Virus record (IMG/VR): IMGVR_UViG_3300042521_002634
Coordinates: 1-64,000 of that record
From: a virus
DNA length: 64,000 nt
Strand: one strand, 5' to 3'
Part shown: positions 3,207 through 62,314 of the stretch, in pieces
How positions within the stretch are numbered: the first letter of the stretch is position 1
Layout of the letters: each line of letters begins with the position of its first letter
The notes under the pieces: generated by a model
What the model was told of the DNA's origin: nothing
Seen by the model: only the letters and a program-made list of their open reading frames with translations
Database searches by the model: none
Program-made: the position numbers and the translations under genes

Positions 3207-4153
3207 TCACTTCCTTTTATGTCTCTTGATTTGTAGTATTCATACGGGTCGGCGACCTCGTACATCTCAGTGATTGCGTTCTCGGCGGCGCTTCCGTCGT
3301 CGATAAGCGGACAAACACTAAAGAACTGACACTTCCATTTGCAGTCACGACTAGGCCGTGGGTATGCAACGAAGTGATGATCGTGGCCTTCATCAAGCGA
3401 CTTTTTTGTCTCCATCAAGTCTTTGATTGTTCCATGAATTCTTGCCCAAAATGATCGCAATGCGAACACATTATGGCGAACTTCCATTTGTTCGTAGAAC
3501 GGTGGCCTTGCGTTTGCTGAACGCTTGACCTTTTTTAGCATTGTAAAGATGCCACCTTCACTTCGTTCTCCTTCCTTATTTTGCGCTGTCTCCAGCATCA
3601 TATAAGTAAGGATCTGCTCATTCATGTGAGCCATTGAGGTGAAGTCTGTGAATGATCCGCCGACTGTCTTAAAGTCACGGAACATACGCACACCGTCACC
3701 GCGACGACGAACACGCATGTCAAGTTTACCTTGAAGTTCGACTGCACCGTCAAACAAAGGCATGCTGATTATTTCTTCAGTTGAGATCATTTCAAGCTCG
3801 GCATCAATACCGTTCTCTTCTACCCATTGAAGATATCCTTCAAGCATGATGCGCCCAAGTTCGGCTTCACTGTCAAGGTCTACAGTGTCACGGTAACTGT
3901 CGATAAGAGCCTGCTTGTCACGGTCTACGAACATCGAGTGCGCCTCAAGCAGCGGAATACCTTGGCCGTAGTACGCGTCAAGCGCGTTGTGAATTCTAGA
4001 ACCAAGCGCCAGCGCGCCGGTCATGTTTTGAGTCTTTGGTTGAAGACGTCGGTAATACGCCAACCACCACTTGCGTCTGCAGTCTTTGTATGTCTGCAGC
4101 TCGCTGTTAGAGAGCTTGTACGGCATGTTTACTTGTGTGACTGTATCTGTCAT
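3203..4153 (-). CDS. Cas4/RecB-like PD-(D/E)XK exonuclease
   Basis: LSNSELQTYKDCRRKW, GSRIH, GKLD...DFKT, and C-terminal C-x3-C-x5-C Fe-S cysteines. Confidence 0.85.
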   Translation of the reverse strand: MTDTVTQVNMPYKLSNSELQTYKDCRRKWWLAYYRRLQPKTQNMTGALALGSRIHNALDAYYGQGIPLLEAHSMFVDRDKQALIDSYRDTVDLDSEAELGRIMLEGYLQWVEENGIDAELEMISTEEIISMPLFDGAVELQGKLDMRVRRRGDGVRMFRDFKTVGGSFTDFTSMAHMNEQILTYMMLETAQNKEGERSEGGIFTMLKKVKRSANARPPFYEQMEVRHNVFALRSFWARIHGTIKDLMETKKSLDEGHDHHFVAYPRPSRDCKWKCQFFSVCPLIDDGSAAENAITEMYEVADPYEYYKSRDIKGSE

Positions 4154-13051: not shown

Positions 13052-13436
13052 ATTGTCCACTTCCTGCGTATCTAACTGTTTCTCCGTTGCGAATTGTGGT
13101 TACGTAAAATCCGTATTCGTCGTGGCGCCAGCCAGCACCAACGTGTTTTCCATTTTCAAGCGTAAGTTTAATGATTAACGGACTGCTCAGTAGTATTGCC
13201 GCAAGCATCTCACTTACAGTAGCCTCAACTGCACCAGCAGAAGAAGTAATTACAACAGCGCCAGGCTGGTCAACTGACGCTACGATGCTGGGCGAGTTTA
13301 GCAAATAGTTTTCGGCAAAAGACGGCTGAAAAGACTTTGTATACACAACTTCATTGTCAATCACAAATGCAATTGCAATGCCAGGATAGCCATCTCTTTC
13401 GGGGCTAAATGTAATGTCTGTTTCGGTTAAAATCAT
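13044..13436 (-). CDS. hypothetical tail-fibre-associated protein
   Basis: 130-aa ORF coupled to its neighbours; C-terminal VGAGWRHD..GF. Confidence 0.65.
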   Translation of the reverse strand: MILTETDITFSPERDGYPGIAIAFVIDNEVVYTKSFQPSFAENYLLNSPSIVASVDQPGAVVITSSAGAVEATVSEMLAAILLSSPLIIKLTLENGKHVGAGWRHDEYGFYVTTIRNGETVRYAGSGQYV

Positions 13437-13438
13437 AT

Positions 13439-13912
13439 TTATGCTCCGCCCGAACCGCTTATCAACTTAGATTTTGCGTATTTATTTGCAAATCCTGCAC
13501 TTGCTGGAGTCATTTCAATATTGGTCCAAGCATCTTGATATGGGAAGCCTTGTCCAATCTCTTCTTCTCGTTGACTTGTAATAAAATCTGCCAACCTTGT
13601 CGCATATCCTTGACGTTGATAATTTGGGTGAGTAATAATAAACCACGGACGCTGTACGCCATTTTCATCCACGTAGCCTGCGTGTAAACAAATTAAATAG
13701 CCATTGTCATCTCTGAACAATGTGTATCTAACTGATTTGATGGTTTCTGAATTGCCCCACTTAGGCGACCTTACTTCTTTAATCCGCTGCGAATAACCCT
13801 TGTTGTTGAGGTCGATTTCGCCAAATAAATTGACCATATCATCCCATAGTGTTGTAACCAATTCTTCGCTGACAATTGGGGCTATATCTGACCACGCATC
13901 ATTTGTTGTCAT
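13439..13912 (-). CDS. GNAT-family acetyltransferase
   Basis: FIITHPNYQRQGYATRL acetyl-CoA motif A; AGGAG SD before the ATG at 13912. Confidence 0.7.
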   Translation of the reverse strand: MTTNDAWSDIAPIVSEELVTTLWDDMVNLFGEIDLNNKGYSQRIKEVRSPKWGNSETIKSVRYTLFRDDNGYLICLHAGYVDENGVQRPWFIITHPNYQRQGYATRLADFITSQREEEIGQGFPYQDAWTNIEMTPASAGFANKYAKSKLISGSGGA

Positions 13913-46602: not shown

Positions 46603-46954
46603 TGCACTATTGTATCATACTTAATTGTGTACATCGCTGCCTTGTTTGACGAACACGACAATACCTGCGGCGGAAAAATCACACCCTGCTTGCGCTGCTC
46701 TGCGTGCGTGCCGAAGGCACGCCGCGTCTTCTGCTAGTGTCATTCACCGCGGCGGAAGACTATGTACAAGGGGAAGTATAGTACCTTGCCATAATTGCCT
46801 TGGACGTGAGAGAGGGATATGGATAGAAATACAGAAAGTGTAAAGTGTCTCCAACTTTTTTAGAAAAATATTTTTTTCTTTGCGAAAAGTTGAGCGCGAG
46901 CGAAGAAAAAAGTTGCTCTACTTTTTTAGATTCCAAAGTTTTTATAATGATGAC

Positions 46955-47314
46955 ATGATGAAAAGAAAAAACATTGTGAGTGTGCTACAAAGTTTGAGTG
47001 AGAAAAGCGCGCGTGCAAAGAGCTTGCCTCCTCTCACTCGAGCAGAGATGAGCAAGTGGCGAGATCCATTTGGCAGAGAGATGTTGACTAGCGCCTCTGC
47101 GTTCGCTCAACAGAAAGAGAAAGCAGAAAAGAAAAAGCGATTTGTTGTTGTTCGACACAGCGATGGAAAAGCTTGGTCAGGTCCATGGCTTAACGATGGA
47201 AAGCGATTCTCCTCAGTAGAAAGCAAGTGGCACTACTTCTTGCGAGAAGAAGACGCGGAGCAAGCTGTAGAGCGCGAAGGCTTCGACTATAGAGTTGATG
47301 TGTTTGAAATGTAG
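46955..47314 (+). CDS. hypothetical basic protein, leaderless, inverted relative to its neighbours
   Basis: TCCAAAG-N4-TATAAT-N6-ATG. Confidence 0.6.
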   Translation: MMKRKNIVSVLQSLSEKSARAKSLPPLTRAEMSKWRDPFGREMLTSASAFAQQKEKAEKKKRFVVVRHSDGKAWSGPWLNDGKRFSSVESKWHYFLREEDAEQAVEREGFDYRVDVFEM

Positions 47315-47821: not shown

Positions 47822-49237
47822 CTAGCGAGGCGAGAACACACGGCCACCGCCGCGGCCATTGCCGTTCCTAAAGCTTGGCAAGCGTCTGTGCGCCAACGAC
47901 TTGGCTGTGATAGTTCCTCCGAGGAAGCCCGCAGGTGGCTTGATTAGCAAAGCAGTAAGTGCGTGAACTAAGGCGTCAACTCTGTCTGGTGACTTGCCTT
48001 CACCTGGAATCCATGCGCACATCTGCGACTCGAGGTCCGCAAGATAATTGACGTGATGCACGCGGTTTTGCTCGTAGGCAAGTGTGATTGGTTCAGCACG
48101 CAAGGCTTTGCCGACCTTTGAATGAACCTCAAATACTTTGATCGTTGGGTCGATTGTGTTGATGGCATTCCGCACTAGTGCGCCGCCTTGGTTTACTTCT
48201 GCTACAACAGGGCACGACCACTTGCGCGCCATTTGAACTACCGTATTGGCCCAGCGGTCTGGCGCGCCAAGAAGTGACGCGTCCTCGAGAACCCATGAAT
48301 GACGCTTGTACAAGTCACGTTCGCCTGTGGAAGCAACAACAACAATCCCGCATTCGTCGCGCGGATTCTCGGCTACGGACGGGTCGACGCCGATGCAGCG
48401 CAATGGCGCGCCAAGCGGCAGTTGTTTTTCCCGGGCGCGTTCAATCAGCTCGATAGTCCACAGCGCGCCTTCGATGTCACTAAGCATTTCACCGTAGAGC
48501 TCTTGAGCTGCCAACCGAGTGCCCTCGTAAACGCCTGTGATTGCGTCAAGATAGGTGCTTGAAAGGTTGCCCGCATTGTCAAGTGTCGAACCTCGTGACA
48601 CGACAACGCGCCCAGTTTTTTCTGCCTCGTTCAGCAAGCCGTACAGCATTGGCACACGCTTTGGCGTTGTAGTGCAGATGATTTGTGGATTGGCGCCAAG
48701 ACGAGTTGCAACTCGAACGTTGTCCCACGACGTCATGCCCGCAGCGTCTGGCGACTGACGCCACGCCGCAATCTCGTCGCACCAGGCGTAGTGAAACTGA
48801 GGACCGCGAAGGCCGTCGGGTTCGTCAGCAGTAAAGCAAGTAGCCGTATTTCCGTTGGGCCAAGTCAGACGGCGCTTCGATGGCTCGTATAGTGGGCGCT
48901 CGCTTGGCGGCGAAACAGAAATGATACCAGATTCGCCTTCAACAATTACGTCACGAACGTCGGCTGCAGTACGAGCGACAAGGGCAAAGCGAAGTTGGCC
49001 CATGTTTGTGACCTTAGCTCTATCACGAACCCACTCCGCAGCTGACCGCGTCTTACCAGCACCGCGGCCAGCGAGGTACATCCATATTGACCAGTCATCT
49101 CCCGGCGGTGGCACTTGTTCCGGCCTTGCCCAGAGTTTCCAGTCCCACACAAGAAGCTCTGGGTCGATTCCGTCGAGAACTTTGTCACGCTCTTCGCGCG
49201 GCAACTTAGCAAGCTCTTCCATGATGCTCTTGGCCAT
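47822..49237 (-). CDS. terL: terminase large subunit
   Basis: AGRGAGKT, LRGPQF, WCDE, TTTPK, GVDP, EVNQGG, SPDRVDALV. Confidence 0.95.
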   Translation of the reverse strand: MAKSIMEELAKLPREERDKVLDGIDPELLVWDWKLWARPEQVPPPGDDWSIWMYLAGRGAGKTRSAAEWVRDRAKVTNMGQLRFALVARTAADVRDVIVEGESGIISVSPPSERPLYEPSKRRLTWPNGNTATCFTADEPDGLRGPQFHYAWCDEIAAWRQSPDAAGMTSWDNVRVATRLGANPQIICTTTPKRVPMLYGLLNEAEKTGRVVVSRGSTLDNAGNLSSTYLDAITGVYEGTRLAAQELYGEMLSDIEGALWTIELIERAREKQLPLGAPLRCIGVDPSVAENPRDECGIVVVASTGERDLYKRHSWVLEDASLLGAPDRWANTVVQMARKWSCPVVAEVNQGGALVRNAINTIDPTIKVFEVHSKVGKALRAEPITLAYEQNRVHHVNYLADLESQMCAWIPGEGKSPDRVDALVHALTALLIKPPAGFLGGTITAKSLAHRRLPSFRNGNGRGGGRVFSPR

Positions 49238-50634: not shown

Positions 50635-51201
50635 TTAGAATCCAAACTTTTTTCGACACTCAGGTCCAAGTTGCAACTCACGAGAGCGAACATCTGTGAG
50701 CTCAGCTCCACATGAACCGCAGCACGAGTAGTGCTTGCCGAAGAGTTGCGTGTACTTGTACGGATCAACCGAGAGAATTGCGACGACTTCTTTAGTCTGC
50801 TCCGCTGTAAGCTTGCCGCGGTTAAACGCGCCCGGAGCTCCATGGAGCGTGCGAATGTAGAGAGTGTTCATGTACTCTTTGATCTCAACAAAAAGCAAGT
50901 CATTTGCTACTTTGACTGACGACAGCTCGAGTTCGTCCGCAGGGATTGCGTACTTTGATTTCGGCACGCTTGCGAGAAGTGTCTGCATTCCGCCGGTCGC
51001 TTTCACGCGCTTAGGCAGCGCCAGAAACGAGCTGATGTCCGAGCTTGCGTGCGACTTTGTGTAGTGGCCAGCAGAGATCGTGTCTTCAATGTGCTCCGCA
51101 GTATCCGCGTCAACCTCTCGGGTTGCGAGCAAGTCGCGGACAAAGCTGATCTGCTTTGGAGTCGCCATGTGGCGAAGTGTGTCTACGGCAGTAATTGTCA
51201 T
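50635..51201 (-). CDS. DUF6011-like zinc-ribbon protein
   Basis: ATPKQI N-terminus; CGSCGAELTD..S....LGPEC. Confidence 0.75.
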   Translation of the reverse strand: MTITAVDTLRHMATPKQISFVRDLLATREVDADTAEHIEDTISAGHYTKSHASSDISSFLALPKRVKATGGMQTLLASVPKSKYAIPADELELSSVKVANDLLFVEIKEYMNTLYIRTLHGAPGAFNRGKLTAEQTKEVVAILSVDPYKYTQLFGKHYSCCGSCGAELTDVRSRELQLGPECRKKFGF

Positions 51202-51299
51202 AACGTCCTTCAGTCGGGCCAAGCGGGTTTGCTTGACAATTAAATTATATAAACTCTGGAAAATGCTCAACTAAACTCGAGTTGAGAAGACTGCTTGAA

Positions 51300-51325
51300 G
51301 AGCCGGGCCCCAACCGGCCCGGCTC
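51300..51325. terminator. GC-rich hairpin
   Basis: GAGCCGGGCC-ccaacc-GGCCCGGCTC. Confidence 0.65.
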
Positions 51326-51336
51326 CTCGAATTCAA

Positions 51337-51642
51337 TTAGAATTCGTAGCAGTAGTATTCGTGGCGCTCGCCGACGTAGAGCTTGAGGCCGCCTCTCATC
51401 GAGGATCCTTGCAGTACGTACTGGCCATTCGCGCGAAGCGTGAACGTCATTGTTTCGCCTTGTGGATTTGGTGTGATAATCCACTGATTGCTCATTGGCG
51501 CACCGGTTGCAACAGCGTTGTCGCGTTGGGCGACCACTGTTTTGTTGTTTTCACTGACCGCGATAACAGTCATCGCAATCGTGTCGGCGCAGAATGAGAC
51601 GGATGCTCCCATTCCAATTTCTGGTTTAATCATGGTTTTCAT
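51337..51642 (-). CDS. hypothetical early protein
   Basis: AAAGGA SD and promoter repeat; PEIGMGAS...YYCYEF. Confidence 0.7.
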   Translation of the reverse strand: MKTMIKPEIGMGASVSFCADTIAMTVIAVSENNKTVVAQRDNAVATGAPMSNQWIITPNPQGETMTFTLRANGQYVLQGSSMRGGLKLYVGERHEYYCYEF

Positions 51643-51710
51643 TTTTGTCCTTTCGTCGTTGTCAGGCTTGTTTGCTTGACAAGATAAATATATCATCTCT
51701 GGAACTCGAG

Positions 51711-51735
51711 TGGCCGGCCAGTTTGTGGCCGGCCG
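51711..51735. terminator. hairpin bracketed by two CTCGAG sites
   Basis: TGGCCGGCCA-gtttg-TGGCCGGCCG between CTCGAG at 51705 and 51743. Confidence 0.65.
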
Positions 51736-51749
51736 GCCGAACCTCGAGT

Positions 51750-52118
51750 TTAGCGGTTTGGGTAGAAGGGAATGTTAAGCAGTTTGCAGTGAGCGTCGAT
51801 GAAGTCGATGATTGGTTTGCCGAATGCCGATATGCAGTCGTCGAAGTCGTCGCAGAAGTCTGAACCGGCGTAGTCGTAGCGTACGCCGTAGTTAAGTGTT
51901 TCGTCGGCTGAAAAGCCGATATTGACGAAGTCGAAGACGTTGCCGTTGTAGTCGTGGCTGAAGTTGTTGAAAAACTCAGTGGTTTCGGTTGGGTCGTCGA
52001 TGCCGGACTTAGTTGTAAGTAAGTAGGCGAGTGACAGTTTTGCGTCGAAGCTGACAGTTTCGTTGTCGATGTCGGTAAGCGTGATTTCGTAGGTGTCAGT
52101 TTTGAGTTGCGTTTTCAT
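51750..52118 (-). CDS. acidic hypothetical early protein
   Basis: Promoter repeat and SD; strong NNC codon bias. Confidence 0.75.
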   Translation of the reverse strand: MKTQLKTDTYEITLTDIDNETVSFDAKLSLAYLLTTKSGIDDPTETTEFFNNFSHDYNGNVFDFVNIGFSADETLNYGVRYDYAGSDFCDDFDDCISAFGKPIIDFIDAHCKLLNIPFYPNR

Positions 52119-52173
52119 TTTTGTCCTTTTGTCGTTGTTGGTATATACATTATACAAACTCTGGAACTCGAGT

Positions 52174-52335
52174 CTACTGATCGTTCAACCGTACAGCAAT
52201 CAGTCCAGCCAACCCAAAGGCTATCGGCACAGGTGTGTTGGCGCCGGCAATGGCAGAAACGACTGAGACTACTCCGCAGCCTGCTGCCACTACCGACGTC
52301 CAAATAACGTCACGAAAACGTGAACGCCAGTTCAT
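52174..52335 (-). CDS. 53-aa membrane protein
   Basis: Not in the ORF track. MNWRSRFRDVIWTSVVAAGCGVVSVVSAIAG...; TAATG coupling to the HTH gene; its TAG abuts the repeat. Confidence 0.6.
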   Translation of the reverse strand: MNWRSRFRDVIWTSVVAAGCGVVSVVSAIAGANTPVPIAFGLAGLIAVRLNDQ

Positions 52336-52514
52336 TAGGCCTTGCGGCGAGTGCGACCCTTGAGACGCGACGAAGCATCGCGAACTGGAGTGCCTGCTTC
52401 ATTGATAAGTTTACGGGCCTTGCCGTAGGTTACGCCCAAAGCTTGAGCTACTTCTACAATTGGCTTTCCTTCTGCGTAAAGCTGCGCTGCAGCTTGTGGA
52501 GTTGGAGTTGACAT
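52335..52514 (-). CDS. small HTH DNA-binding protein
   Basis: LYAEGKPIVEVAQALGVTYGKARKLINEAG..R; GAGG SD at the ATG 52514. Confidence 0.75.
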   Translation of the reverse strand: MSTPTPQAAAQLYAEGKPIVEVAQALGVTYGKARKLINEAGTPVRDASSRLKGRTRRKA

Positions 52515-52771
52515 TATTCCTCGTTTCGTTGTTTGTTGTTTGTGCCGCACTGGCTCGTCAGTTGGCGTCATTGCCAACTGAGCTCGGGAGCGTGCGATAA
52601 GCTCCTCCGCCTCGACGAGTAGCATTTCGCTACTCACGATCAAACTCATTAGTTCGCTCGATAAGGCTGAAGTCATTTAGTTTCTTTCTCAGCAACGCGT
52701 TCTCTATTTCTAGCTCCGCGTTTCGTCTTTGTAAGTAACTCATTGACCATTCTTCTTCCTTTGTCATAGCG

Positions 52772-53053
52772 TCAGATCGATGGTATATCATTTTCGTCAT
52801 AAAGTACACCTTGATCCGCATCTTTTTTAGGAGCTACTACTCCAAGTAAGGTTTTTGAATCTTTTTGCGCAAAACGCTTGACAGACCACACAGTTGCGAA
52901 GTGCACCGCTGGCAGCAGCAGCCCAAGGCTCGTGATGAAGACGATGCCGGCTGCGAGACTTGTTTCTCCAACAAACGGAATAACAATCAGTGGAATAGCA
53001 ATTGCTAAACTTAAAAAGATAGCCGCAAACGTTCCTGGTTGATTTTTTGTCAC
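52772..53053 (-). CDS. two-TM membrane protein
   Basis: Two hydrophobic helices; GAGG SD before the GTG. Confidence 0.6.
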   Translation of the reverse strand: MTKNQPGTFAAIFLSLAIAIPLIVIPFVGETSLAAGIVFITSLGLLLPAVHFATVWSVKRFAQKDSKTLLGVVAPKKDADQGVLYDENDIPSI

Positions 53054-53185
53054 TTGTTCCTCACTTTCAATTTTAATATACCACAATTGCAACCGCTCAG
53101 ATCATTTACACGACCTCAGCCAGCCACTTTTCAATTCCAGCCGGCGAAGTGACTCACAAACGCAGTGCGTGCCTGTGCAGACAGT

Positions 53186-53443
53186 CTAGCCCTGGGTTGG
53201 CAGCTGAATTTCTTGCCCAGGGTAGATTGTAGACGTGCCAAGGTTTAGAACTAAGTCGTCCATGGCATTTACAACGTTGCCTGAGCAATTTGCCTGAGCG
53301 ATGCCGTGTAGCGTCTGGCCTTCCTGCACTGTCACGGCCGGCGAGTTGCAAGTGTACTTGCCACTCTCTTGCGCGACCTTGACTAAGCCTACAGCCGCAA
53401 CTGCTGCCAGGGCAACAAAAAACATTTTACGTGCTTTCGTCAT
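53186..53443 (-). CDS. membrane-anchored LysM protein
   Basis: N-terminal TM; VTVQEGQTLHGIA...IYPGQEIQLP. Confidence 0.8.
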   Translation of the reverse strand: MTKARKMFFVALAAVAAVGLVKVAQESGKYTCNSPAVTVQEGQTLHGIAQANCSGNVVNAMDDLVLNLGTSTIYPGQEIQLPTQG

Positions 53444-53552
53444 TTAAGTCTCCTTCGTCATTGTAGTTGATAGTACTATTTTAACTTCTTTGGAACTGAG
53501 TTCCCTAAAGCTTAGCAGCCCGGGCGACGATTCCCGGGCGCCAGCGATCTAA

Positions 53553-53777
53553 CTAATAAGCGTACGAGTTTGAGTGACCCCAGACACGTTGATGTACCGC
53601 CGCGATGTCCGCAGCCTGCTCGTTGCTTTCGCATTCCATCTTTAAAATGACGGAATCGCTCGAGTCACCAGTCGGGCTTGCGAACCAAAGTTCAAGGGTT
53701 TTGCCGTAGAGCATGTAACCTCTGAACGCGCCTTTGCTCTCTCGAACAGTCGAGAGTGCTTCGTCTGTCATTGCCAT
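53553..53777 (-). CDS. hypothetical early protein
   Basis: SD and promoter repeat. Confidence 0.65.
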   Translation of the reverse strand: MAMTDEALSTVRESKGAFRGYMLYGKTLELWFASPTGDSSDSVILKMECESNEQAADIAAVHQRVWGHSNSYAY

Positions 53778-53842
53778 TTCATTTCGTCCTTTCGTAAGTG
53801 CCAACCATTTTGGCTGACAGAATTATATTAACTTCTCTGGAA

Positions 53843-54013
53843 TCAATGCCCGTAGCGTCGAAGCAGCTCGCACGCGATTGTCATCGGATACGATGACGCG
53901 ACATTGCGAACTACCTCCGCAACGATGTCGTCTTCGCCCAGATCCGGGTAATCGGCTTTCGCGTCTTGGATACCGATCTGTACCTCGACGAGAGCGTCAT
54001 TTAACGTTCTCAT
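53843..54013 (-). CDS. 56-aa acidic hypothetical protein
   Basis: Not in the ORF track. MRTLNDALVEVQIGIQDAKADYPDLGEDD...; SD present; its TGA abuts the next repeat. Confidence 0.65.
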   Translation of the reverse strand: MRTLNDALVEVQIGIQDAKADYPDLGEDDIVAEVVRNVASSYPMTIACELLRRYGH

Positions 54014-54155
54014 GCTCATCCTTTCGTCGTTGATAGATACAATGTATCATCTCCGGAACTGAAGTCGTAGGCCGGCTTAGTCAGAGTCCGCTCTAGTTCC
54101 GGAGATGATATATTTATCTCATCAGCACAACGCTGGTAACGACGAAAGGACGAAA

Positions 54156-54404
54156 ATGAAAAAATGGTGCTTGCTTAAAGGAAGCGACATCGGCCCAATG
54201 GGACGAGGTCAGAATGGCAAGAAGAAAGTCTACGAGGTAATCGCAGATGGTTCAGTGTTGCGTTGCTCGTGGGGCATGGCAGAGAAGATCAACCGCCAGT
54301 CAAGCGTGCAAGTGTATCACTCAGGCCAAGCAGCAATGTCAGCCGCGTACGAAAAAGTGTACGCAAAGCGAGACAAGGGATACGCTCTAGCTTACGAAGT
54401 TTAA
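54156..54404 (+). CDS. stand-alone WGR-like domain protein
   Basis: KKVYEV...LRCSWG...Q......A....K....K..KGY. Confidence 0.65.
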   Translation: MKKWCLLKGSDIGPMGRGQNGKKKVYEVIADGSVLRCSWGMAEKINRQSSVQVYHSGQAAMSAAYEKVYAKRDKGYALAYEV

Positions 54405-54424
54405 TCTTCGTAAATGGTAAGTCA

Positions 54425-54449
54425 GCCAGCCGGCCAAACCGGCTGGCTA
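54425..54449. terminator. hairpin preceding a promoter repeat
   Basis: AGCCAGCCGG-ccaaa-CCGGCTGGCT; a related hairpin lies at about 54748-54772. Confidence 0.65.
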
Positions 54450-54481
54450 ACTCCAGTTTCCAGAGTTGTTATATTGATTAC

Positions 54482-54733
54482 ATGACAAACATACAAACAC
54501 ACCAAATAATCAACATCCATCACGAACCTGAATACTTGACTACTGTCACGTTTAACTACTACGGCGACCCGTACGCCATATCGCACATCGGCAACCTAAA
54601 CGGCATCGACAGCTACTGCGTAAACAGCGTCAACAGCAACGAGTACTACGAATACCTCGCTGCCAACTGCGACTTCATCGTCGACTTGCTCAAAAATAAT
54701 CCGCGCATCGACGCCGCGCTTCACAGCAAATAA
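54482..54733 (+). CDS. leaderless Asn/Tyr/Ile-rich hypothetical protein
   Basis: TCCAGAG-N4-TATATT-N6-ATG; flanked by two similar hairpins. Confidence 0.7.
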   Translation: MTNIQTHQIINIHHEPEYLTTVTFNYYGDPYAISHIGNLNGIDSYCVNSVNSNEYYEYLAANCDFIVDLLKNNPRIDAALHSK

Positions 54734-54779
54734 CAAATAAATAATCGGCCAGCCGACTAAAAACCGGCTGGCTATTTAT

Positions 54780-54965
54780 TTACACCGCGCCAAAGTTGCG
54801 TTCAGTCCGCACGCGCTCGAGTTCTTGATTTAGGCTTTCAACTTTAGTCCGCAGCATTTGTATCTCTTCAGCTGCGTTTCTCATCACAGGCGCGGACGGA
54901 CCAAGTCCATTGCGTTCTGCCAGCGCAAGAAGACGCCATACAACATCGATTGAACCATCGATCAC
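54780..54965 (-). CDS. small coiled-coil hypothetical protein
   Basis: DVVWRL..AAEEIQMLR. Confidence 0.55.
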   Translation of the reverse strand: MIDGSIDVVWRLLALAERNGLGPSAPVMRNAAEEIQMLRTKVESLNQELERVRTERNFGAV

Positions 54966-55162
54966 TTAACTAGTTCCATGGCCACTCCAGTTGACGTGTG
55001 CTCTTTCGGATTGTGGCACACTGGCGGCTCAGATACTTTCACATGAAGAATGACAGTCTCGCCACACTTTGGGCATTTCCATTTATCTTTTCGTTTTGGC
55101 AAGCGCTCGTTGCGATCTGTAGCGCCACCGCTTTCCTCTTCTTCTGCGGCTGCTTCGTTCAT
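54962..55162 (-). CDS. small Zn-ribbon protein
   Basis: WKCPKCG...PVC....H; AGGAG SD. Confidence 0.6.
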   Translation of the reverse strand: MNEAAAEEEESGGATDRNERLPKRKDKWKCPKCGETVILHVKVSEPPVCHNPKEHTSTGVAMELVK

Positions 55163-55230
55163 TGGTACTCCTTTTAGACAATAGTAGTTGTTAAGTATAC
55201 CACGTTCTCCAGATAGATTCTGCGACTGAC

Positions 55231-55470
55231 TTAACGAGTTCGGCGTGCAGTGCGCCGCAGCCTACGCCGCTCATTACCAGTAAGTCCGCCCCAGACGCCG
55301 ATCTGTTCGTTGTCTAGCGCGTAGTCCAAACACTCCTGCCTGACTAAGCACCCAGCGCAGACGACCTTGGCCTGCCGCGTGACTATACGCGATTTCTCGT
55401 TATGGAACAAATCTCCTTTGCCGGCGCACGCCGCATGCTGCATCCAATGCTGCTGCTTAGCGATGCGCAT
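55231..55470 (-). CDS. whiB: WhiB-family transcription factor
   Basis: W...AAC..DLF..AKVVCAGC.VRQECL.YAL..GVWGGLT..ER. Confidence 0.95.
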   Translation of the reverse strand: MRIAKQQHWMQHAACAGKGDLFHNEKSRIVTRQAKVVCAGCLVRQECLDYALDNEQIGVWGGLTGNERRRLRRTARRTR

Positions 55471-55874
55471 TACTTCACCCCTACTGGGGTGAAGTAACGC
55501 TTGACTGATTCTTGGAAGAATGAATGCTTCCCAGTCGCAACCTCACGTACGTAAATTGGGTACTTCGACCGCGAAGCCGCGATACCCGCAAACGCATACT
55601 CTTTTCCATTGACTGAGAAAGTCTTTCCAAGAAGACCTTCCGGCAAGTCGTACATCGAACCAAAACGAATGTAATCTGTCGCTTCTACTGAAGCGAGATT
55701 GACTCCATTTGGTCCAGTCTCGACTGGCTGAGCTTCAATCTTGAGTGAGTAAAGTTGTCCGTACTTTATGGAGACTTTGCCTCGCTCGAGACCATGTTTT
55801 GCGAAGATTGCCACTGCAGCTTTTTCAAGCTCGTTAGTAATTTCCTGCGCAAGTGATCTGCTTACTGCTGTCAT
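55470..55874 (-). CDS. hypothetical early protein
   Basis: Promoter repeat and SD; LGKTF..G...SRSKYPI. Confidence 0.7.
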   Translation of the reverse strand: MTAVSRSLAQEITNELEKAAVAIFAKHGLERGKVSIKYGQLYSLKIEAQPVETGPNGVNLASVEATDYIRFGSMYDLPEGLLGKTFSVNGKEYAFAGIAASRSKYPIYVREVATGKHSFFQESVKRYFTPVGVK

Positions 55875-56043
55875 TTGTTTGTCCTTTCGTAGTTGACAAG
55901 TTAATTATAACAAACTCTGGAAACTTAAACAAGTGATTACTTTATGTAAAACCACCACAGATCTTCTTCTTTTTCTTCTTCTAGCCTCGCTCGAGGCGCC
56001 GGCTGCCACAGCCACAGCATTGCGCGTTTGACAGCCGCGAGCA

Positions 56044-57288
56044 CTATCCAACTGCAATCGAGCTGTACGGCGCTCCACCTACAAGTACGATTACATTATA
56101 CCCACTTAGGTTTCTAGTCGTCGTGAACTTTACCGCACCGCTGGCTGAAGAAGTCTTCGTCCAAGTAAAGGATGACTTAGCTTTTGCTAGTGCGCTAATT
56201 TGCATCTTTGTTCCGGGGAGCGAAGATTCAACTGCGATCTCGTAGCCTTCTGAAGTTTTCGTCACCGCAACTGTTACAGAAGTAGACGACGGCACTTCAG
56301 TCCCATTGTCGATCTCTTTGACAATTGTTGTTGAAGTTGTTGTTGTCACCGCAGGCGCAGAACTAGACCCAGACAATGGAGCGTACAGCAACTTGTTTGG
56401 AGAACCCACGCCAGCGTCAGTAATCGCATCGCTGGTGGCAGAACTCACAATCAACGAAGTAACGTCAGTTACAGACAGCGCTGGACTATTCTGTAGCGCT
56501 AACGCCGCGACGCCGGTGACGTGTGGCGCCGCGTGTGACGTACCTTTAAGAGTTTTAGACGCTGTTGGCGACGTAGCCCACGCTGACAGCACGTTTGCGC
56601 CTGGAGCAAATATGTCAACACACTTGCCGTAGTTAGCCCATGACCACCTAGCGTCGTTTTCATCACTCGCCGCAACGTTGATCGCGCTTGGAGTAGACCC
56701 CGGCGAGTAACTGCACGCGTCCTTATTGTTGTTGCCGGCTGCAGTAACTACTACAATTCCATCTGCAATCGCGCGATCGACCGCAGCATTTACTTTTGAT
56801 GACAAGTTTCCACTCATGCTGATATTCATGACTGCAGGCTCGCCAGTCTTGTGATCTGCTACTGCCCAGTCGATGCCCGCGATCATGTCAGACGTCCAAC
56901 CATTACCACTACAGTCTGTGACCCGCACAGGGACAAGAGTCACCTTTGGCGCTACGCCGTAGGTTGACCCGCCGACTACGCCGGCGACATGAGTGCCATG
57001 TCCGTAGCAGTCCTCAGTTCCTCGCCCATCAAGAATTTTAGTGAAACCCGCACGAATTCTGCCTGTAAACTCTTCATGCGACGAGAGTATGCCACTGTCA
57101 ACTACGTAGACAGTGACGCCTTGACCATTAAGCGCCAGCGAAACGTCTTTGTTCAACGGCAGTGAGCGTTGATCAATGCGATCAATATTCCACTGAGCTG
57201 TAGCAACGGCTTCCGCATTTCCATAGATTAAGGCGATTACGACGGCAACTATCGCCGCCACAATTGCAAACTTATTTTTTACTTTCAT
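56044..57288 (-). CDS. exported subtilisin-like S8 serine protease (aqualysin/proteinase K type)
   Basis: Signal/TM segment; WNIDRIDQR, VVDSGI, HGTHVAG, AAGN, GTSHAAPHV. Confidence 0.92.
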   Translation of the reverse strand: MKVKNKFAIVAAIVAVVIALIYGNAEAVATAQWNIDRIDQRSLPLNKDVSLALNGQGVTVYVVDSGILSSHEEFTGRIRAGFTKILDGRGTEDCYGHGTHVAGVVGGSTYGVAPKVTLVPVRVTDCSGNGWTSDMIAGIDWAVADHKTGEPAVMNISMSGNLSSKVNAAVDRAIADGIVVVTAAGNNNKDACSYSPGSTPSAINVAASDENDARWSWANYGKCVDIFAPGANVLSAWATSPTASKTLKGTSHAAPHVTGVAALALQNSPALSVTDVTSLIVSSATSDAITDAGVGSPNKLLYAPLSGSSSAPAVTTTTSTTIVKEIDNGTEVPSSTSVTVAVTKTSEGYEIAVESSLPGTKMQISALAKAKSSFTWTKTSSASGAVKFTTTRNLSGYNVIVLVGGAPYSSIAVG

Positions 57289-57494
57289 CGTGAGCTCCTG
57301 TATGATTCGTCAGTTGCACGCATGATACTTTCCCATGATGCTTTTCTGTCGTCAGCCTCTGAGCTTCTGACTATTACGCGATCGCCGTACTTAGCACGAC
57401 GATTTAGTTCACCGCGTTCTTTCCACAGAGACCAGCCAGCTACCGCGAAGAAGCTCGCAATGATAGCTTGAAACATAGCTTGAACAACTCTCAT
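57285..57494 (-). CDS. small membrane protein
   Basis: One hydrophobic helix; start position uncertain. Confidence 0.45.
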   Translation of the reverse strand: MRVVQAMFQAIIASFFAVAGWSLWKERGELNRRAKYGDRVIVRSSEADDRKASWESIMRATDESYRSSR

Positions 57495-57664
57495 TATCGA
57501 CCACGCTTGCGCGATATCGACATACCGGCGATTAAGAACACCGCGACTGCCCAAGCAACCGCAGCGGCAGTATTGTAGAACTCTATATCTATTCTCATCA
57601 TTTTCTCCTTTGTAGTTTGTATTGTGTCTTACTTTTCTTATTTTATATATTACATTCTCTGGAA

Positions 57665-58255
57665 CTAAACCGGCCCGCTCTGAACTTGTATGTTGAACGG
57701 CGCGCTCGTGTTTGCGTCCAACCTTGCCGCAACAGTAAGCGCAGTCTTGACCGCAGCCTTAGCTTTATCTATGTTGTCCGCACCTTCTGGAAGAAGAGCG
57801 TACAGCACACCGAGCGCGTATGGACTTCCAGTGCCAAGGCCGTAGATGCCACTTGTGTCTTTAACCCACGAGTAGTCTTCTCCGATGACGTACACCGCAC
57901 CATTGACTGCAGCCAGTATTATTGATCCAGACTCATCTGAATGATCTTTGTTGGGTGAAGGCGCTGTGTAACCTTGCTCGTTAAAGCACGCACGCAGTGA
58001 CGGAACAAAGTCGCTCGTTATGAATTTGTCAAGTCGGGTGCCGACAAAATTCTTAGCGTCAGGCGGACGGAATGCGTATTGCAAGATGTTGATCGCGCGC
58101 ACGTCGCCTGCAGCGCCAAGCAGATACGCACGATTCCGCGCGACCTTGGCTGAACCTTTAGGTAGAACGTAGACGCGCCCATCTTCTTCAGTGACACGCG
58201 AATCAGACCCAACTACAGTCCAGCCACTGCCAGTTACTGCAACTATCGTTGTCAT
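57665..58255 (-). CDS. proteasome beta-subunit / HslV-like threonine protease
   Basis: N-terminal (M)TTIVAV nucleophile, GSDSRVT, K, GAAGD, GTGSPYALG. Confidence 0.85.
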   Translation of the reverse strand: MTTIVAVTGSGWTVVGSDSRVTEEDGRVYVLPKGSAKVARNRAYLLGAAGDVRAINILQYAFRPPDAKNFVGTRLDKFITSDFVPSLRACFNEQGYTAPSPNKDHSDESGSIILAAVNGAVYVIGEDYSWVKDTSGIYGLGTGSPYALGVLYALLPEGADNIDKAKAAVKTALTVAARLDANTSAPFNIQVQSGPV

Positions 58256-58263
58256 GCAGTCAA

Positions 58264-58566
58264 CTATACCTTTTTGTCGAGTACGACAGGTGACATCGCA
58301 TAACGGAACTCTTTTCCATCAAGCTTGCCTTCGACTATCAATGATCTAGGCCACTTAGCCGCAACAACGCACTCGGCGCCGCGCAGGGCTTCGTACCCGC
58401 ATAGGTCATTTACAACAACTAGGTCTCCAGTCTCGTAGTCGGCGACTGAGCGCTTAGCGCGGATCTTCTGCGCATGGCGCGTCACCGCAGTCTCTATCGA
58501 GAACGCGACGTCGTCGTAGACTCCACTTTGCAGATCTGACAAAAACCTCTCAGCTTTTACCTTCAT
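58264..58566 (-). CDS. hypothetical protein (SH3-like C-terminus)
   Basis: ORF overlapping the upstream gene. Confidence 0.55.
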   Translation of the reverse strand: MKVKAERFLSDLQSGVYDDVAFSIETAVTRHAQKIRAKRSVADYETGDLVVVNDLCGYEALRGAECVVAAKWPRSLIVEGKLDGKEFRYAMSPVVLDKKV

Positions 58567-58759
58567 TGCTTAACTCCTCTACCGCACGCTTAATTTTCAG
58601 AATATCGGAGTTCTTCGACGTTGTCGGGTCAGTGACAAAGCGATTAACTTTCCTCGCTGTAGTGCCAGCCGACTCTGCAATTTTCTCAATGCCAATTTTC
58701 TTTACGGCATGCGCCAACTCGAGCATTTTCTCGATGTGACTTTCTAGTATGACTCCCAT
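58550..58759 (-). CDS. small HTH-like protein
   Basis: GIEKIAESAGTTARKVNRFV; SD and promoter repeat. Confidence 0.55.
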   Translation of the reverse strand: MGVILESHIEKMLELAHAVKKIGIEKIAESAGTTARKVNRFVTDPTTSKNSDILKIKRAVEELSNEGKS

Positions 58760-58888
58760 GTCTTCTCCTTTGTCGTTTCTTATACCTGATTGTAGATACC
58801 ATTATACATTCTCTGGATAGCAAGAAGTAGAGCCGATCAAAGTCTCAGCGATTGATTATCGGCGCTACTCTACTCGCTATGGCAGCGA

Positions 58889-59161
58889 CTATACAGCTAG
58901 AGTGACCTCACCCTTAGCGACCTGTGACATCAGCCGGCACGCTTGTTTCGTGTCGTCTACTTTGACTGACGTGCCTGTCATGATGTCGAATACGAGATAG
59001 TGAGTACGATCATCCGCTCGCAACACCGCAAGCTTCTTTCGGCGACGAAAGTACGCTGCTGAGTACCCAGCCGGCAAACTTATGCCCGCTGCAAGTTCTG
59101 GGAGCTCTTCAGTCCGCGAACCTGGCTTAGCTCTATTTTTTGTTTCTGTTTCTGTTGTCAT
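58889..59161 (-). CDS. hypothetical protein
   Basis: AAGGAG SD. Confidence 0.65.
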   Translation of the reverse strand: MTTETETKNRAKPGSRTEELPELAAGISLPAGYSAAYFRRRKKLAVLRADDRTHYLVFDIMTGTSVKVDDTKQACRLMSQVAKGEVTLAV

Positions 59162-59191
59162 TATGTCTCCTTTTGTTTTTGTTGTTATTAC

Positions 59192-59668
59192 TTAATAAAT
59201 GCTGAATCCGCCGGACTCAACTAAGAAGTCTGCGAACTCGCGAATATCGTCTACGTCAAGACTGTAGTGCGCTTCCCAAGGGCGAACCTTGCCTTTGCTA
59301 TCGCATGCATTGCACGTCTTCTTTTTGTCCATGCCCATGCTGACGCCGACCGTATCCGTTCGGATACCTGTTGCGTCACAGTACTTGCATGGCTCGTCCG
59401 GCAACGCAGCAATAGCCGCATCACGTTCTGAGACGTAGCGAGCAGCGATACCATCTGCAATGTCGTTGTAGAGCTTCAGACCGAGCGCGTAAGCGTCATC
59501 TTCGTTCAGCCCATCACCATCGTTAGTCTGAGCATTCTTCACCTTTGATGCGGTGTCTACGTGCATATCTTCTACGTAGATCCACAGCGGGCGCCAGCCC
59601 CAAACGTTGCGTCGGAAGTATTCGCCCATTTCACTTTTGGCGTTTCTTCCCATTACGTCCATTCCCAT
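59192..59668 (-). CDS. conserved phage protein with a DnaJ-like CxxCxxxG zinc finger
   Basis: YFRRNVWGWRPLW, CKYCDATG, CNACDSKG, FL.ESGGF.I. Confidence 0.7.
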   Translation of the reverse strand: MGMDVMGRNAKSEMGEYFRRNVWGWRPLWIYVEDMHVDTASKVKNAQTNDGDGLNEDDAYALGLKLYNDIADGIAARYVSERDAAIAALPDEPCKYCDATGIRTDTVGVSMGMDKKKTCNACDSKGKVRPWEAHYSLDVDDIREFADFLVESGGFSIY

Positions 59669-59719
59669 TATTGTTCTCCTTTTGTAGTGTGTCGTTTTAG
59701 TTTTGAAAGAAGCAGAACT

Positions 59720-59857
59720 TTAGAAGTCCCACTTCTTTACGCGGCAAGCCTGACGATTCGCAAGCTTGCGCTTGTTAGGAATCTGCTGAGCTCTGAGGAT
59801 ATTTCTATCCGCAAAGGCTTGGCGACTTTCCGCGTTCCATTTGGTTGATGTTTTCAT
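59720..59857 (-). CDS. 45-aa basic leaderless protein
   Basis: TATAAT-GAATAT-ATG; MKTSTKWNAESRQAFADRNILRAQQIPNKRKLANRQACR... Confidence 0.65.
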   Translation of the reverse strand: MKTSTKWNAESRQAFADRNILRAQQIPNKRKLANRQACRVKKWDF

Positions 59858-59888
59858 ATATTCATTATACAATCTCTGGAAACTCGAG

Positions 59889-60137
59889 TTAAAGACTGAA
59901 GATCGAAGTTTGTGAATCAAAGAACTCCATGTCGTCCTCTTGACCCAACCACTCAGCGAGAGTTTCCGAGTCGGATTCGTTGAAAACGATGTCGATATTT
60001 GGCCAGCCGGTGGATTCGGTGGCAATGTCGACGACGCGGACAAACGAGTCCGGAATAGTGTTTTTTAGGTCGATAATGGCGTCGAGAAGGTTTTCGGTGG
60101 CCAAGTCGACGTTGATGATTTTTGTGTGGTTGTTCAT
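59889..60137 (-). CDS. 82-aa acidic leaderless protein
   Basis: Same promoter repeat; its stop overlaps the next repeat. Confidence 0.7.
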   Translation of the reverse strand: MNNHTKIINVDLATENLLDAIIDLKNTIPDSFVRVVDIATESTGWPNIDIVFNESDSETLAEWLGQEDDMEFFDSQTSIFSL

Positions 60138-60169
60138 ATATTCATTATACAATCTCTGGAAACTCAAGT

Positions 60170-60472
60170 TTAGTAGGGACTTTGGCCGTTGTCGAAGCGG
60201 CTGTCAGTCGCGATGAGGGCCAGAAGGACATCGTAGTTGAAAACTTGTTCGATTTCAGATTCGTCGAAGAGTGGGGCCTCGAACGAGAACGTGGCGGCGT
60301 CGTTGCCGAGATTAATGAATGGCTGATTGTCGACGAAGTGAATTGTGAATATCGGGTCGAGGCCAAGTTCGTTGAAGTCGATTGTTGCGTTGTTGCAGTT
60401 AGCGTAGAAGTAGTCGATGTCGAAGTCGATTGTAACTGCGTTGTCTGTTTTTGTGATCGTGTAGGTTTTCAT
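60170..60472 (-). CDS. 100-aa acidic protein
   Basis: Promoter repeat and AAAGGA SD. Confidence 0.7.
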   Translation of the reverse strand: MKTYTITKTDNAVTIDFDIDYFYANCNNATIDFNELGLDPIFTIHFVDNQPFINLGNDAATFSFEAPLFDESEIEQVFNYDVLLALIATDSRFDNGQSPY

Positions 60473-60532
60473 GATTTTTCCTTTGTCGTTGTGTATATAA
60501 ACATTATACAAACTCTGGAAACTCGAGTTGCT

Positions 60533-60739
60533 CTATCCGAACATCTCGGCCCAGCACTCTGGGTGCGTGCCTGAAACAAGCTGCTCACGAAGACCTCTGC
60601 TTAGATCAGGGAACGCGTTCTGTATCAACGCGCCCGCACTGCGTCGTGCAAGGCCTGAGTTCGGTACTTCTACCTCACCCTTGTATCCGCAATGAACGCA
60701 CCGCGGCGTCTCGACTACTGAGTAAAACTCTGTCCGCAT
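60533..60739 (-). CDS. small Zn-binding protein
   Basis: CVHCG...IQNAFPDLS...REQLVSGTHPECW. Confidence 0.7.
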   Translation of the reverse strand: MRTEFYSVVETPRCVHCGYKGEVEVPNSGLARRSAGALIQNAFPDLSRGLREQLVSGTHPECWAEMFG

Positions 60740-60749
60740 GCTCTGCTCC

Positions 60750-60917
60750 TTAATCCCACAGAGGTTCGCGCGGTGTGAGTGCCGCAATGATGAGACATAC
60801 GCCCGAGATGCCGAGCTTGAACTGTGTCGACGTTCTCACGCCGAGGTGCTCTACACCAAGCAACCGCTCGAGTTCATTGATTGCGAGTTCGAATTCATTC
60901 TCTGTGTTTACTGCCAT
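60750..60917 (-). CDS. small hypothetical protein
   Basis: AGGAG SD. Confidence 0.5.
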   Translation of the reverse strand: MAVNTENEFELAINELERLLGVEHLGVRTSTQFKLGISGVCLIIAALTPREPLWD

Positions 60918-60964
60918 GTTGTTCTCCTGTGTCATGTTGATAGTTTAATTATATAAACTCTGGA

Positions 60965-61258
60965 CTAGTACTCTGACATCATTCTGTCGTAGCGAATCTC
61001 TTCCGCAACCGCGTCGTCGTCGTACTTCTCGAGAGCGACCATCGCCTCATCGACGTTGGTGAACTCTTGTTCGTGAATGCAATCTACGTCTGCCGGCTCC
61101 CAGTACGTCGCTGGAATTGTCTTCCAAACTGTCCCGACGATGAGTCCGCTAGTCTGCACTTGCACTTCAAGCCCGAACAAGTCGCCTATCGCGAAGTACT
61201 CCGCAATGACGCCTTCAAACGGCTCTCTTGTTCCCCATTGTTTCTTCGTGTATTTCAT
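60965..61258 (-). CDS. acidic hypothetical protein
   Basis: Promoter repeat and SD; PATYWEPA. Confidence 0.7.
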   Translation of the reverse strand: MKYTKKQWGTREPFEGVIAEYFAIGDLFGLEVQVQTSGLIVGTVWKTIPATYWEPADVDCIHEQEFTNVDEAMVALEKYDDDAVAEEIRYDRMMSEY

Positions 61259-61310
61259 ATTGCGTCCTTTCGTTGTTATATATGCATTATATAAACTCTG
61301 GAACTCGAGT

Positions 61311-61457
61311 TTACTTCTTATTTTGCTTTTCGATGCACCTGACTAAGTCTTCAGCTATTTCTTTCTTTCTGAAGTACCTAACTCCAGACGGAGTTATTAC
61401 GTTCCAAGTGTGAATGCTTCTCTCAATACGTACCTGTTGTTTCGTCGTTGTAGTCAT
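61311..61457 (-). CDS. 48-aa leaderless protein
   Basis: Not in the ORF track. TATAAT-GGTTGC-ATG; MTTTTKQQVRIERSIHTWNVITPSGVRYFRKKE...; its stop abuts a repeat. Confidence 0.6.
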   Translation of the reverse strand: MTTTTKQQVRIERSIHTWNVITPSGVRYFRKKEIAEDLVRCIEKQNKK

Positions 61458-61488
61458 GCAACCATTATATAAACTCTGGAACTCGAGT

Positions 61489-61659
61489 CTATATCGAGAT
61501 CGGGCAACTCAGGTTCGCATCGTTTGAGTGGAATCGAAGTTCCTGCTTGCAAACTGCGCAGATTTCGTCTAAGTCTAGACCAACAACGCTGTCGTTGTAG
61601 TCACGCATAGCTCGTCGTTTACCTGCTCGATAAGCGATGTACAGTCCTAAGATTCCCAT
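61489..61659 (-). CDS. 56-aa leaderless protein with a CxxC..H..C motif
   Basis: TATAAT-GTAGTT-ATG. Confidence 0.6.
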   Translation of the reverse strand: MGILGLYIAYRAGKRRAMRDYNDSVVGLDLDEICAVCKQELRFHSNDANLSCPISI

Positions 61660-61691
61660 AACTACATTATAACAGCTCTGGATGTCCAAAG

Positions 61692-61780
61692 TGGCAGCGG
61701 TCTTGCCTTGCAGCCTCCCGCCAGGCCGATGCTTGAAATTGGCAGCGGTCTTGCCTCTGCAGCCTTCCACCAGGCCGATG
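61692..61780. repeat. intergenic tandem duplication of a ~40-bp GC-rich unit (48-bp period)
   Basis: tggcagcggtcttgcct-tgcagcctcccgccaggccgatg versus tggcagcggtcttgcctctgcagccttccaccaggccgatg. Confidence 0.9.
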
Positions 61781-61782
61781 TC

Positions 61783-61986
61783 TCAATCGCGTTTAGGGAA
61801 CGCAATGATCTTAGCATCAGGCGGTTCAGGCAGCACCTCGATGTCGAGGATGTCAACCATCTCTGCGTCTTCTATTCCCTGCGAGACAGCTGCGAATACC
61901 TCACCGTCTATCTCTGTGTATGCGTCAGGCCCGCGCCTCACGCACAGCCGGACCACTACTGAGTAGAGGACCGTGCCTTCACTCAT
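61783..61986 (-). CDS. small acidic hypothetical protein
   Basis: ATGA coupling to the upstream gene. Confidence 0.55.
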   Translation of the reverse strand: MSEGTVLYSVVVRLCVRRGPDAYTEIDGEVFAAVSQGIEDAEMVDILDIEVLPEPPDAKIIAFPKRD

Positions 61987-62201
61987 GATTGTGCGGCGTC
62001 AGGGAACACCAACGGCAGCGCTAACTGCGCCGTCGGTTTCATCTTGCCGCCTGACAACTGCAGCGCGATACTTCCACGCTCGCCTTCAGGCGCGTTGTCG
62101 ACGTCTTCCCACTCGTCCTCGGTCCAGTCTGATGTGTCGACGACGACTAATTGACGAGCATTGCCGTAGTTTCCATCGGCAGCGAAATAGTGAATTGTCA
62201 T
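61983..62201 (-). CDS. small acidic hypothetical protein
   Basis: YFAADGNYG..DTSDWTEDEW; promoter repeat and SD. Confidence 0.65.
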   Translation of the reverse strand: MTIHYFAADGNYGNARQLVVVDTSDWTEDEWEDVDNAPEGERGSIALQLSGGKMKPTAQLALPLVFPDAAQS

Positions 62202-62314
62202 TAGGTTATCCTTTCGTTGTTGTTACGTACATTATATAAACTCTGGAAGAATGAACCAACCCGGGAGGAACACTAAAGGACAAGTAAAGTGTGTCCACCC
62301 CGGGCCGGCGATCT

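Follow-up and report, generated by a model that had tools for sequence, protein, structure and literature searches.

Promoter-like repeats and shuffled gene units in the putative early region of a freshwater actinophage

The array and its phage

The stretch of DNA analyzed here (the window) covers positions 1-64,000 of the IMG/VR virus record IMGVR_UViG_3300042521_002634, a linear record of 98,426 bp with a CheckV completeness of 74%. It carries an array of small gene units, most of them on the minus strand, each of which starts with a copy of a short promoter-like repeat. An earlier note on this DNA had described it as an array of single-gene cassettes delimited by the repeat, integron-like in character, in which genes are shuffled by recombination. 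Here, the repeat and the units were characterized, and gene content and order were compared with those of related phages.

The TerL protein (47822-49237, minus strand) shared 84% identity with its counterpart in the uncultured Actinomycetia phage DSL-LC01, ~60% with those of Microbacterium phages and ~49% with those of Gordonia phages, and 278 further TerL relatives are present in IMG/VR. Among the genes of the array are those for a WhiB protein (55231-55470), an HslV-like peptidase, and a subtilase. On the strength of the TerL match to DSL-LC01 together with the WhiB gene, the virus is a freshwater actinophage, with Actinomycetia as the host clade. A megablast search against GenBank phages returned a single 113-bp match, and the paper describing DSL-LC01 mentions neither promoters nor repeats.

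The repeat was searched as TCCAGAG-N4-TATAAT with at most two mismatches. It occurs 18 times in the window, compared with 0.96 expected matches (none of 100 shuffles reached 18), and 30-31 times in the whole record, where all copies are confined to positions 46,932-69,198 and point in the direction of the downstream open reading frame (ORF). The spacing between the TCCAGAG box and the -10 hexamer, a perfect or near-perfect TATAAT, is 4 nt in all copies except one with 5 nt. Seven of 30 copies have a leaderless geometry, with the ATG 6-7 nt past the -10 hexamer, and most of the others are followed by a conserved ACGAAAGGA-type Shine-Dalgarno leader of 20-45 nt. No conserved -35 element was detected: just four copies passed a sigma-70 consensus scan, all of them solely through an upstream stop codon plus ACT, reading TAGACT or TTAACT, and classical sigma-70 -35/-10 promoters were rejected. 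Actinobacterial promoters are characterized by a TANNNT element 7-12 nt before the start site without a conserved -35, and 26% of the genes of M. tuberculosis are leaderless (PMC3898074). Judged from its sequence, the motif matches the geometry of such promoters and of leaderless mRNAs, and we interpret it as a putative early promoter. Pfam searches of the record matched no phage sigma factor and no T7-type or single-subunit polymerase, so that these were discarded as readers and the host RNA polymerase (sigma-A) is most likely the enzyme that reads the promoter, possibly helped by the phage WhiB or by another factor.

Cassette paralogy was considered as well, and an all-against-all BLASTP detected none among the cassettes; the repeats are therefore regulatory only. 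Related phages retain the same dense promoter architecture despite lineage-specific boxes, which read TCCAGAG in this phage, TCTAAAG in DSL-LC01, and ACTAAGG or ACTCAGG in others. When boxes were read in the first 10-14 kb of four related contigs (L007, L028, L067, and L101), they were uniform inside each genome and different between lineages, L067 having a longer and different upstream motif. Such uniformity points to concerted evolution or to a recognition factor that may co-evolve with the box.

The units are tightly packed. In 15 of 30 copies the box is separated from the stop codon of the upstream ORF by 0-17 nt, and a stable hairpin (≤ -20 kcal/mol) is found inside the 60 nt upstream of about ten of the 30; elsewhere the stop directly abuts the box. 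All ten stop/repeat junctions quoted in the earlier note could be read back in the sequence: TAA-CTCGAG at 59889, TAA-ACTTGAG at 60170, TAA-ACTCGAG at 61311 and 51750, TAG-ACTCGAG at 61489 and 52174, TAG-AGCA-ACTCGAG at 60533, TGA-T-box at 53843, TAG-T-box at 57665, and TAG-box at 60965. The same is true of the near-identical repeats at 59853-59890 and 60133-60170, which differ at 1 of 38 bases and are 280 bp apart, and of the GC hairpin at 51711-51742, bracketed by CTCGAG sites at 51705-51710 and 51743-51748. The description of a single-gene array suits about half of the units, the rest holding two to five ORFs (units starting at 53494, 55921, 57663, 58817, 59880, 60964, and 62247).

Units were numbered along the array and are on the minus strand unless stated otherwise. 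The unit 62247-61683 (promoter 62231-62247) contains ORFs 61983-62201 and 61783-61986. Behind them, two ~48-bp copies make up a GC-rich imperfect tandem repeat (61693-61790), which lies between the ORF end at 61783 and the promoter at 61666-61682 and is a possible double terminator or small RNA. W12 (61481-61682, promoter 61666-61682) holds the leaderless ORF 61489-61659 (56 aa), with its ATG 6 nt after the -10 hexamer. W13 (61303-61480), which has CTCGAG directly upstream of its promoter (61464-61480), holds the leaderless ORF 61311-61457 (48 aa) and is enclosed by a 26-nt exact direct repeat common to the next promoter. W18 (58818-59880, promoter 59864-59880) starts with the leaderless ORF 59720-59857 and continues with 59192-59668 and 58889-59161; W19 (57664-58817, promoter 58801-58817) contains ORFs 58550-58759, 58264-58566, and 57665-58255, the last encoding the HslV-like peptidase; W20 (55922-57663, promoter 57647-57663) contains ORFs 57494-57601, 57285-57476, and 56044-57288, the last encoding the S8 subtilase; and W21 (54780-55921), whose promoter (55904-55921) is the copy with the 5-nt spacer, contains ORFs 55470-55874, 55231-55470 (WhiB), 54962-55162, and 54780-54965.

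An inverted segment (54098-54775) holds two plus-strand units. The first has a promoter at 54098-54114, ORF 54156-54404, and a hairpin at ~54424-54449; the second has a promoter at 54459-54475, the leaderless ORF 54482-54733, and a bidirectional terminator at 54748-54772. Next to it, the minus-strand unit 53843-54057 carries ORF 53843-54013 behind a promoter of the TCCGGAG variant (54041-54057). Two TCCGGAG-variant promoters stand back to back at 54041-54114 as an inverted repeat; they border the array's single plus-strand segment and may mark an inversion boundary. W22 (53495-53841, promoter 53825-53841) contains ORF 53553-53777 and a GC hairpin at ~53515-53545, and W23 (52166-53494), with a promoter of the TCCAAAG variant (53478-53494), contains five ORFs, among which 53186-53443 encodes a LysM protein and 52335-52514 an HTH protein. 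W25 (51261-51703, promoter 51687-51703) holds ORF 51337-51642 and a terminator hairpin at 51300-51325, and W26 (50635-51260, promoter 51244-51260) holds ORF 50635-51201 (DUF6011). An outlying plus-strand copy of the TCCAAAG variant (46932-46948) precedes the leaderless ORF 46955-47314. At the other end of the window, a 597-aa protein without a Pfam match (62315-64108) adjoins an AAA_5 ATPase at 64227-65219 of the record, assigned to a PHROG of 'porphyrin biosynthesis'/CobS-like proteins, and the pair resembles the CobT/CobS-like pairs annotated in DSL-LC01.

Gene order and breakpoints in related phages

Relatives were searched by scanning viral and metagenome contigs for the HslV-like protein, by DNA patterns of junctions and promoters, and by cassette proteins. 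Close relatives amounted to just one IMG/VR contig, one 26-kb metagenome contig, and two short pieces; the sequences used were L083/L087 (18 kb) and L090 (26 kb), independent assemblies from different samples with ~88% nucleotide identity to the window. L083 and L090 agree at 99.9% over 11.4 kb, three of the rearrangements described below included, and between 47.8 and 60.2 kb L083 reproduces the structure of L090.

When the window and L090 were cut at every box, 19 units aligned from first base to last. The unit 62247-61683 is kept in L090 as R09 (92.5% identity), and W12 aligns end to end with R10. In L090, two additional units (R04 and R05) are inserted between W07 and W08, the units starting at 66295 and 65784. 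W14 (60965-61302), with a promoter at 61286-61302 and ORF 60965-61258 (97 aa, net charge -12), is replaced by R12 and R13; R13 is a second copy of the gene family of ORF 54156, and the L090 ortholog of 54156 itself lies on the opposite strand. The two family members of L090 (6797-7033 and 13423-13668) are on opposite strands, and the family of 54156-54404 is also found twice, in different places, in DSL-LC01 (L101:2818-3099 and 13288-13551). Two neighbors have swapped order in L090: W15 (60520-60964; promoter 60948-60964; ORFs 60750-60917 and 60533-60739), which corresponds to R15 over 444 of 444 aligned nt at 95.7% identity, comes after W16 (60161-60519; promoter 60503-60519; ORF 60170-60472, 100 aa, charge -14), which corresponds end to end to R14 at 92%. 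W17 (59881-60160), with a promoter at 60144-60160 and the leaderless ORF 59889-60137 (82 aa, charge -14), is flanked by the 38-nt direct repeat with one mismatch described above; its L090 allele has 45% amino acid identity to the window and 84% to the DSL-LC01 gene. Lastly, W24 (51704-52165; promoter 52149-52165; ORF 51750-52118, 122 aa, charge -14), which contains the hairpin between CTCGAG sites, is replaced in L083 and L090 by an unrelated leaderless ORF of 76 aa. Left of the box, the sequence at all of these junctions tracks the upstream unit, and everything past it tracks the downstream unit.

Five of the eight events that separate the window from L090/L083, the neighbor swap included, are thus bounded by a box on both sides. 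The earlier proposal of shuffling is supported by these data: gene content and order vary among relatives, the rearranged units of the closest relative start and end at the repeat, and a conserved content and order was not what we found in the relatives compared. L090 additionally contains two 'empty' units (1639-1774 and 6655-6745) with a promoter and a hairpin-forming stretch and no convincing ORF, which resemble solo regulatory cassettes or excision footprints.

We consider it probable, on balance, that promoter-bounded units are shuffled by short-homology recombination (~8-45 bp) at the repeated promoter/leader modules. A rival reading, which we hold to be unlikely though deserving of weight, is that the repeats are just compact promoters: illegitimate indels would arise anywhere, selection would keep the intergenic ones, and in so packed an array these would end up next to promoters. 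Against such a reading, units that were replaced, inserted, or permuted can be aligned over their full length from box to box without scars, and the neighbor swap requires at least two precise events. Rearrangement also follows the length of homology at the junction: of the junctions with the longer CTCGAG plus box homology, six of seven are rearranged, vs. three of 15 others (Fisher p = 0.0066). The two longest exact matches among 378 promoter pairs (33 and 26 nt) both belong to adjacent promoters that enclose one ORF, in one case the variable W17, and adjacent promoters are more alike than random pairs (p = 0.011). Such a structure, with the longest direct repeats around single variable ORFs, is what the integration of a one-promoter circle at another copy would be expected to leave behind.

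Several observations weigh against recombination at the promoter modules, and some of them favor the compact-promoter reading directly. Of the eight events in the closest pair, three lack a box at one or both ends: the deletion of 54448-54745 in L083/L090, which removes the second plus-strand unit, lies between two similar terminator hairpins (the alignments overlap by 26-27 nt); a 686-bp insert in L083/L090 sits in the leader of the unit 53843-54057, at ~54032; and the variable 3' tail of W20 (55929-56060), unlike that of L090, has one end at the end of the subtilase gene (56060), its other end preceding a box by 8 nt. In the L036/L039 lineage, left breakpoints of the exchanged pieces are located just past the -10 hexamer or within the leader, and those on the right at unique terminators. 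Raw alignment ends fell inside the 27-nt promoter window in 6 of 16 cases, vs. 13% for non-coding positions (p = 0.013), and across 14 related pairs the enrichment was small, 36-38% of boundaries lying near the -10 hexamer vs. 29% of random non-coding positions; the link to promoters is therefore just slightly stronger than a statement that indels are intergenic. Because the promoters are all alike, crossovers are not placeable below the shared 7-27 nt. All sequences compared are metagenome assemblies, and the W15/W16 swap rests on one contig, L090. The record holds no Pfam-detectable single-stranded DNA-binding protein (SSB), and the activity of the promoters is inferred, as are the mechanism of recombination and any circular intermediate.

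The origin of the contigs also raises the question of whether the rearrangements are assembly chimeras, produced by short-read assemblers that mis-joined co-occurring strains at the repeated promoters. Apart from the metagenomic origin and the confinement of the swap to L090, contig ends speak for such an artifact, as L091 ends ≤ 2 nt from the 59889 junction and L083 ends inside a variable stretch, both typical of graph branching at repeats. The repeats of 17-45 bp are, however, below usual final k-mers and reads, and L083 and L090 come from different samples and share three events within their 99.9% agreement. Even chimeric joins would need coexisting cassette variants in nature, and more distant full contigs differ in gene order as well, which makes this explanation very unlikely in our judgment. 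L091 (SXGQ01355029.1) is a 4,970-bp metagenome contig; its end near the variable junction can be explained by strain heterogeneity or by an assembly break in the repeat, and 45 nt separate its other end from the junction at 54745.

Phages further away (TerL identity ~80-85%) share few early genes with the window, namely those for the HslV-like, WhiB, zinc-ribbon, HTH, and DUF6011 proteins and the gene at 50006. Early-gene order is scrambled in them and cassettes are duplicated: homologues of 54156, 53553, 51337, and 53186 are relocated or on the other strand, even the HslV-like gene is relocated or strand-switched in L028, and homologues of W15, W17, and W24 occur in DSL-LC01 in yet another order.

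Candidate recombination functions and the question of a dedicated system

Under short-homology recombination, the region would represent the early hyperplastic part of an actinophage genome, made up of ~30 putatively autonomous transcription units. Each would consist of the box, 4 nt, the TATAAT hexamer, a Shine-Dalgarno leader or a leaderless ATG, and one to a few small ORFs, mostly ORFans, and would end with a stop codon or a GC hairpin abutting the next promoter. The promoter/leader modules are candidate substrates for short-homology recombination because they form near-identical direct repeats of 17-45 bp. Recombination, carried out by phage Sak4-like/Cas4-like functions or by host enzymes, could then delete, insert, or replace whole units, or permute them in two steps, while each gene would stay expressed. 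The Sak4-like and Cas4-like genes invoked in the earlier note are indeed in the record: a Sak4-like AAA_24 protein (2448-3206, minus strand) and a Cas4-like PD-(D/E)XK nuclease (3203-4153, minus strand), both above the Pfam cut-off, are candidate recombination genes.

The integron-like or site-specific alternative of the earlier note was not supported. It would involve a dedicated system acting at the TCCAGAG core or the CTCGAG palindrome through an unrecognised recombinase, and it might be suggested by crossover intervals that narrow to the 7-8 nt box like a core site, by the seven junctions that the palindrome AACTCGAGTT abuts, six of which are rearranged, and by the 60 CTCGAG sites in the record vs. 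22 expected. Nevertheless, neither a tyrosine (PF00589) nor a serine (PF00239) recombinase was matched in the 74%-complete record. The distance from the box to the -10 hexamer is fixed at all promoters, stable ones too, and the box varies by lineage together with the promoter. Each cassette has its own promoter and no attC-like fold, and many units are operons. The insertion at 65785 lacks CTCGAG, so that this palindrome was rejected as an obligatory recombination site, and the three further indels lie at terminator hairpins, in a leader, or on one side at a gene end. Taken together, these features render such a system extremely improbable. The CTCGAG excess, calculated from base composition, is unusual for a phage, given that the site is a 6-bp palindrome; the sites are clustered at 45-73 kb, and some lie inside genes.

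A more speculative proposal, which we regard as highly improbable, is that the box, joined by the AACTCGAGTT palindrome in the subset that is most mobile, serves as the core site of a dedicated actinophage cassette exchange, in which single-gene circles with one promoter would integrate at, and be excised from, other copies by an unrecognised recombinase or by Sak4 annealing tuned to the box. If true, the array would be a phage 'integron analogue' through which phages trade ORFans that are acidic and may act in anti-defence.

Likeness to known systems and meaning for actinophages

Short-homology recombination at promoter modules has its closest counterpart in the promoter-early stem-loop (PeSL) regulatory cassettes of T4-like phages (Arbiol et al. 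2010, PMC2839356; Comeau et al. 2014, PMC4122927). In both cases early-promoter modules are repeated and are often joined to the upstream stop codon and, in part of the copies, to a stem-loop; they are clustered in a hyperplastic region before ORFans (here all copies lie at 46.9-69.2 kb), they bound indels and replacements between close relatives (here five of eight events), and homologous recombination between modules is the proposed mechanism. The present lineage, however, is an actinophage (TerL nearest to DSL-LC01) and not a T4-like myovirus, its promoter is without a -35 element, has the TCCAGAG box 4 nt from the -10 hexamer and is often leaderless, the shared homology is ~17-45 bp vs. 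~100 bp in PeSL, and a hairpin is found at only about one third of the copies. The array is an analogue of PeSL, and no PeSL by descent.

Three other systems share some of these traits. Morons are autonomous promoter-gene-terminator units in lambdoid and other phages and, like the units described here, are self-contained transcription units with accessory genes of unknown function inserted between neighbors; the present units differ in forming a long contiguous array with one promoter family, with whose shared sequence the exchange points coincide. Integron arrays likewise consist of tandem small exchangeable units with a short conserved junction sequence and a content that varies among relatives, yet they have an integrase, attC hairpin sites, and a single Pc promoter, whereas this array has no attC sites and, within the 74%-complete record, no integrase, has a promoter for each cassette, includes operons and inverted units, and uses the promoter itself as the junction repeat. 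Stoperators, the repressor-binding sites of Cluster A mycobacteriophages, are also short asymmetric motifs of an actinophage group, repeated many times, co-oriented with transcription, and often placed beside stop codons. They have no fixed relation to a -10 element; in this array a constant 4 nt separate the box from TATAAT, start codons follow at a leaderless distance, and it is because the box is locked to the -10 hexamer that we consider the array unlike stoperators.

Most cargo proteins have no Pfam or PHROG match, and the genes exchanged are mainly small ORFans. Four single-gene ORFans, the cargo exchanged most frequently (51750-52118, 59889-60137, 60170-60472, and 60965-61258), all replaced or permuted in the close relative, are strongly acidic, with net charges of -12 to -14 and a pI of ~4.1. 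They have no match in Pfam or PHROG, and a protein atlas gave no lead for two of the acidic cargo proteins. Owing to their strong acidity they are candidates for early host-takeover or anti-defence proteins, possibly DNA mimics.

To our knowledge, promoter-mediated modular shuffling has been described only for T4-like phages of Gram-negative hosts. The present results suggest that it also operates in an unrelated and widespread group of freshwater actinophages, and they offer a simple rule to predict the entry and exit points of accessory genes in these genomes. The promoter family itself (a box plus a -10 hexamer, often leaderless) could, if confirmed to be active, be put to use as a compact expression element in Actinobacteria.

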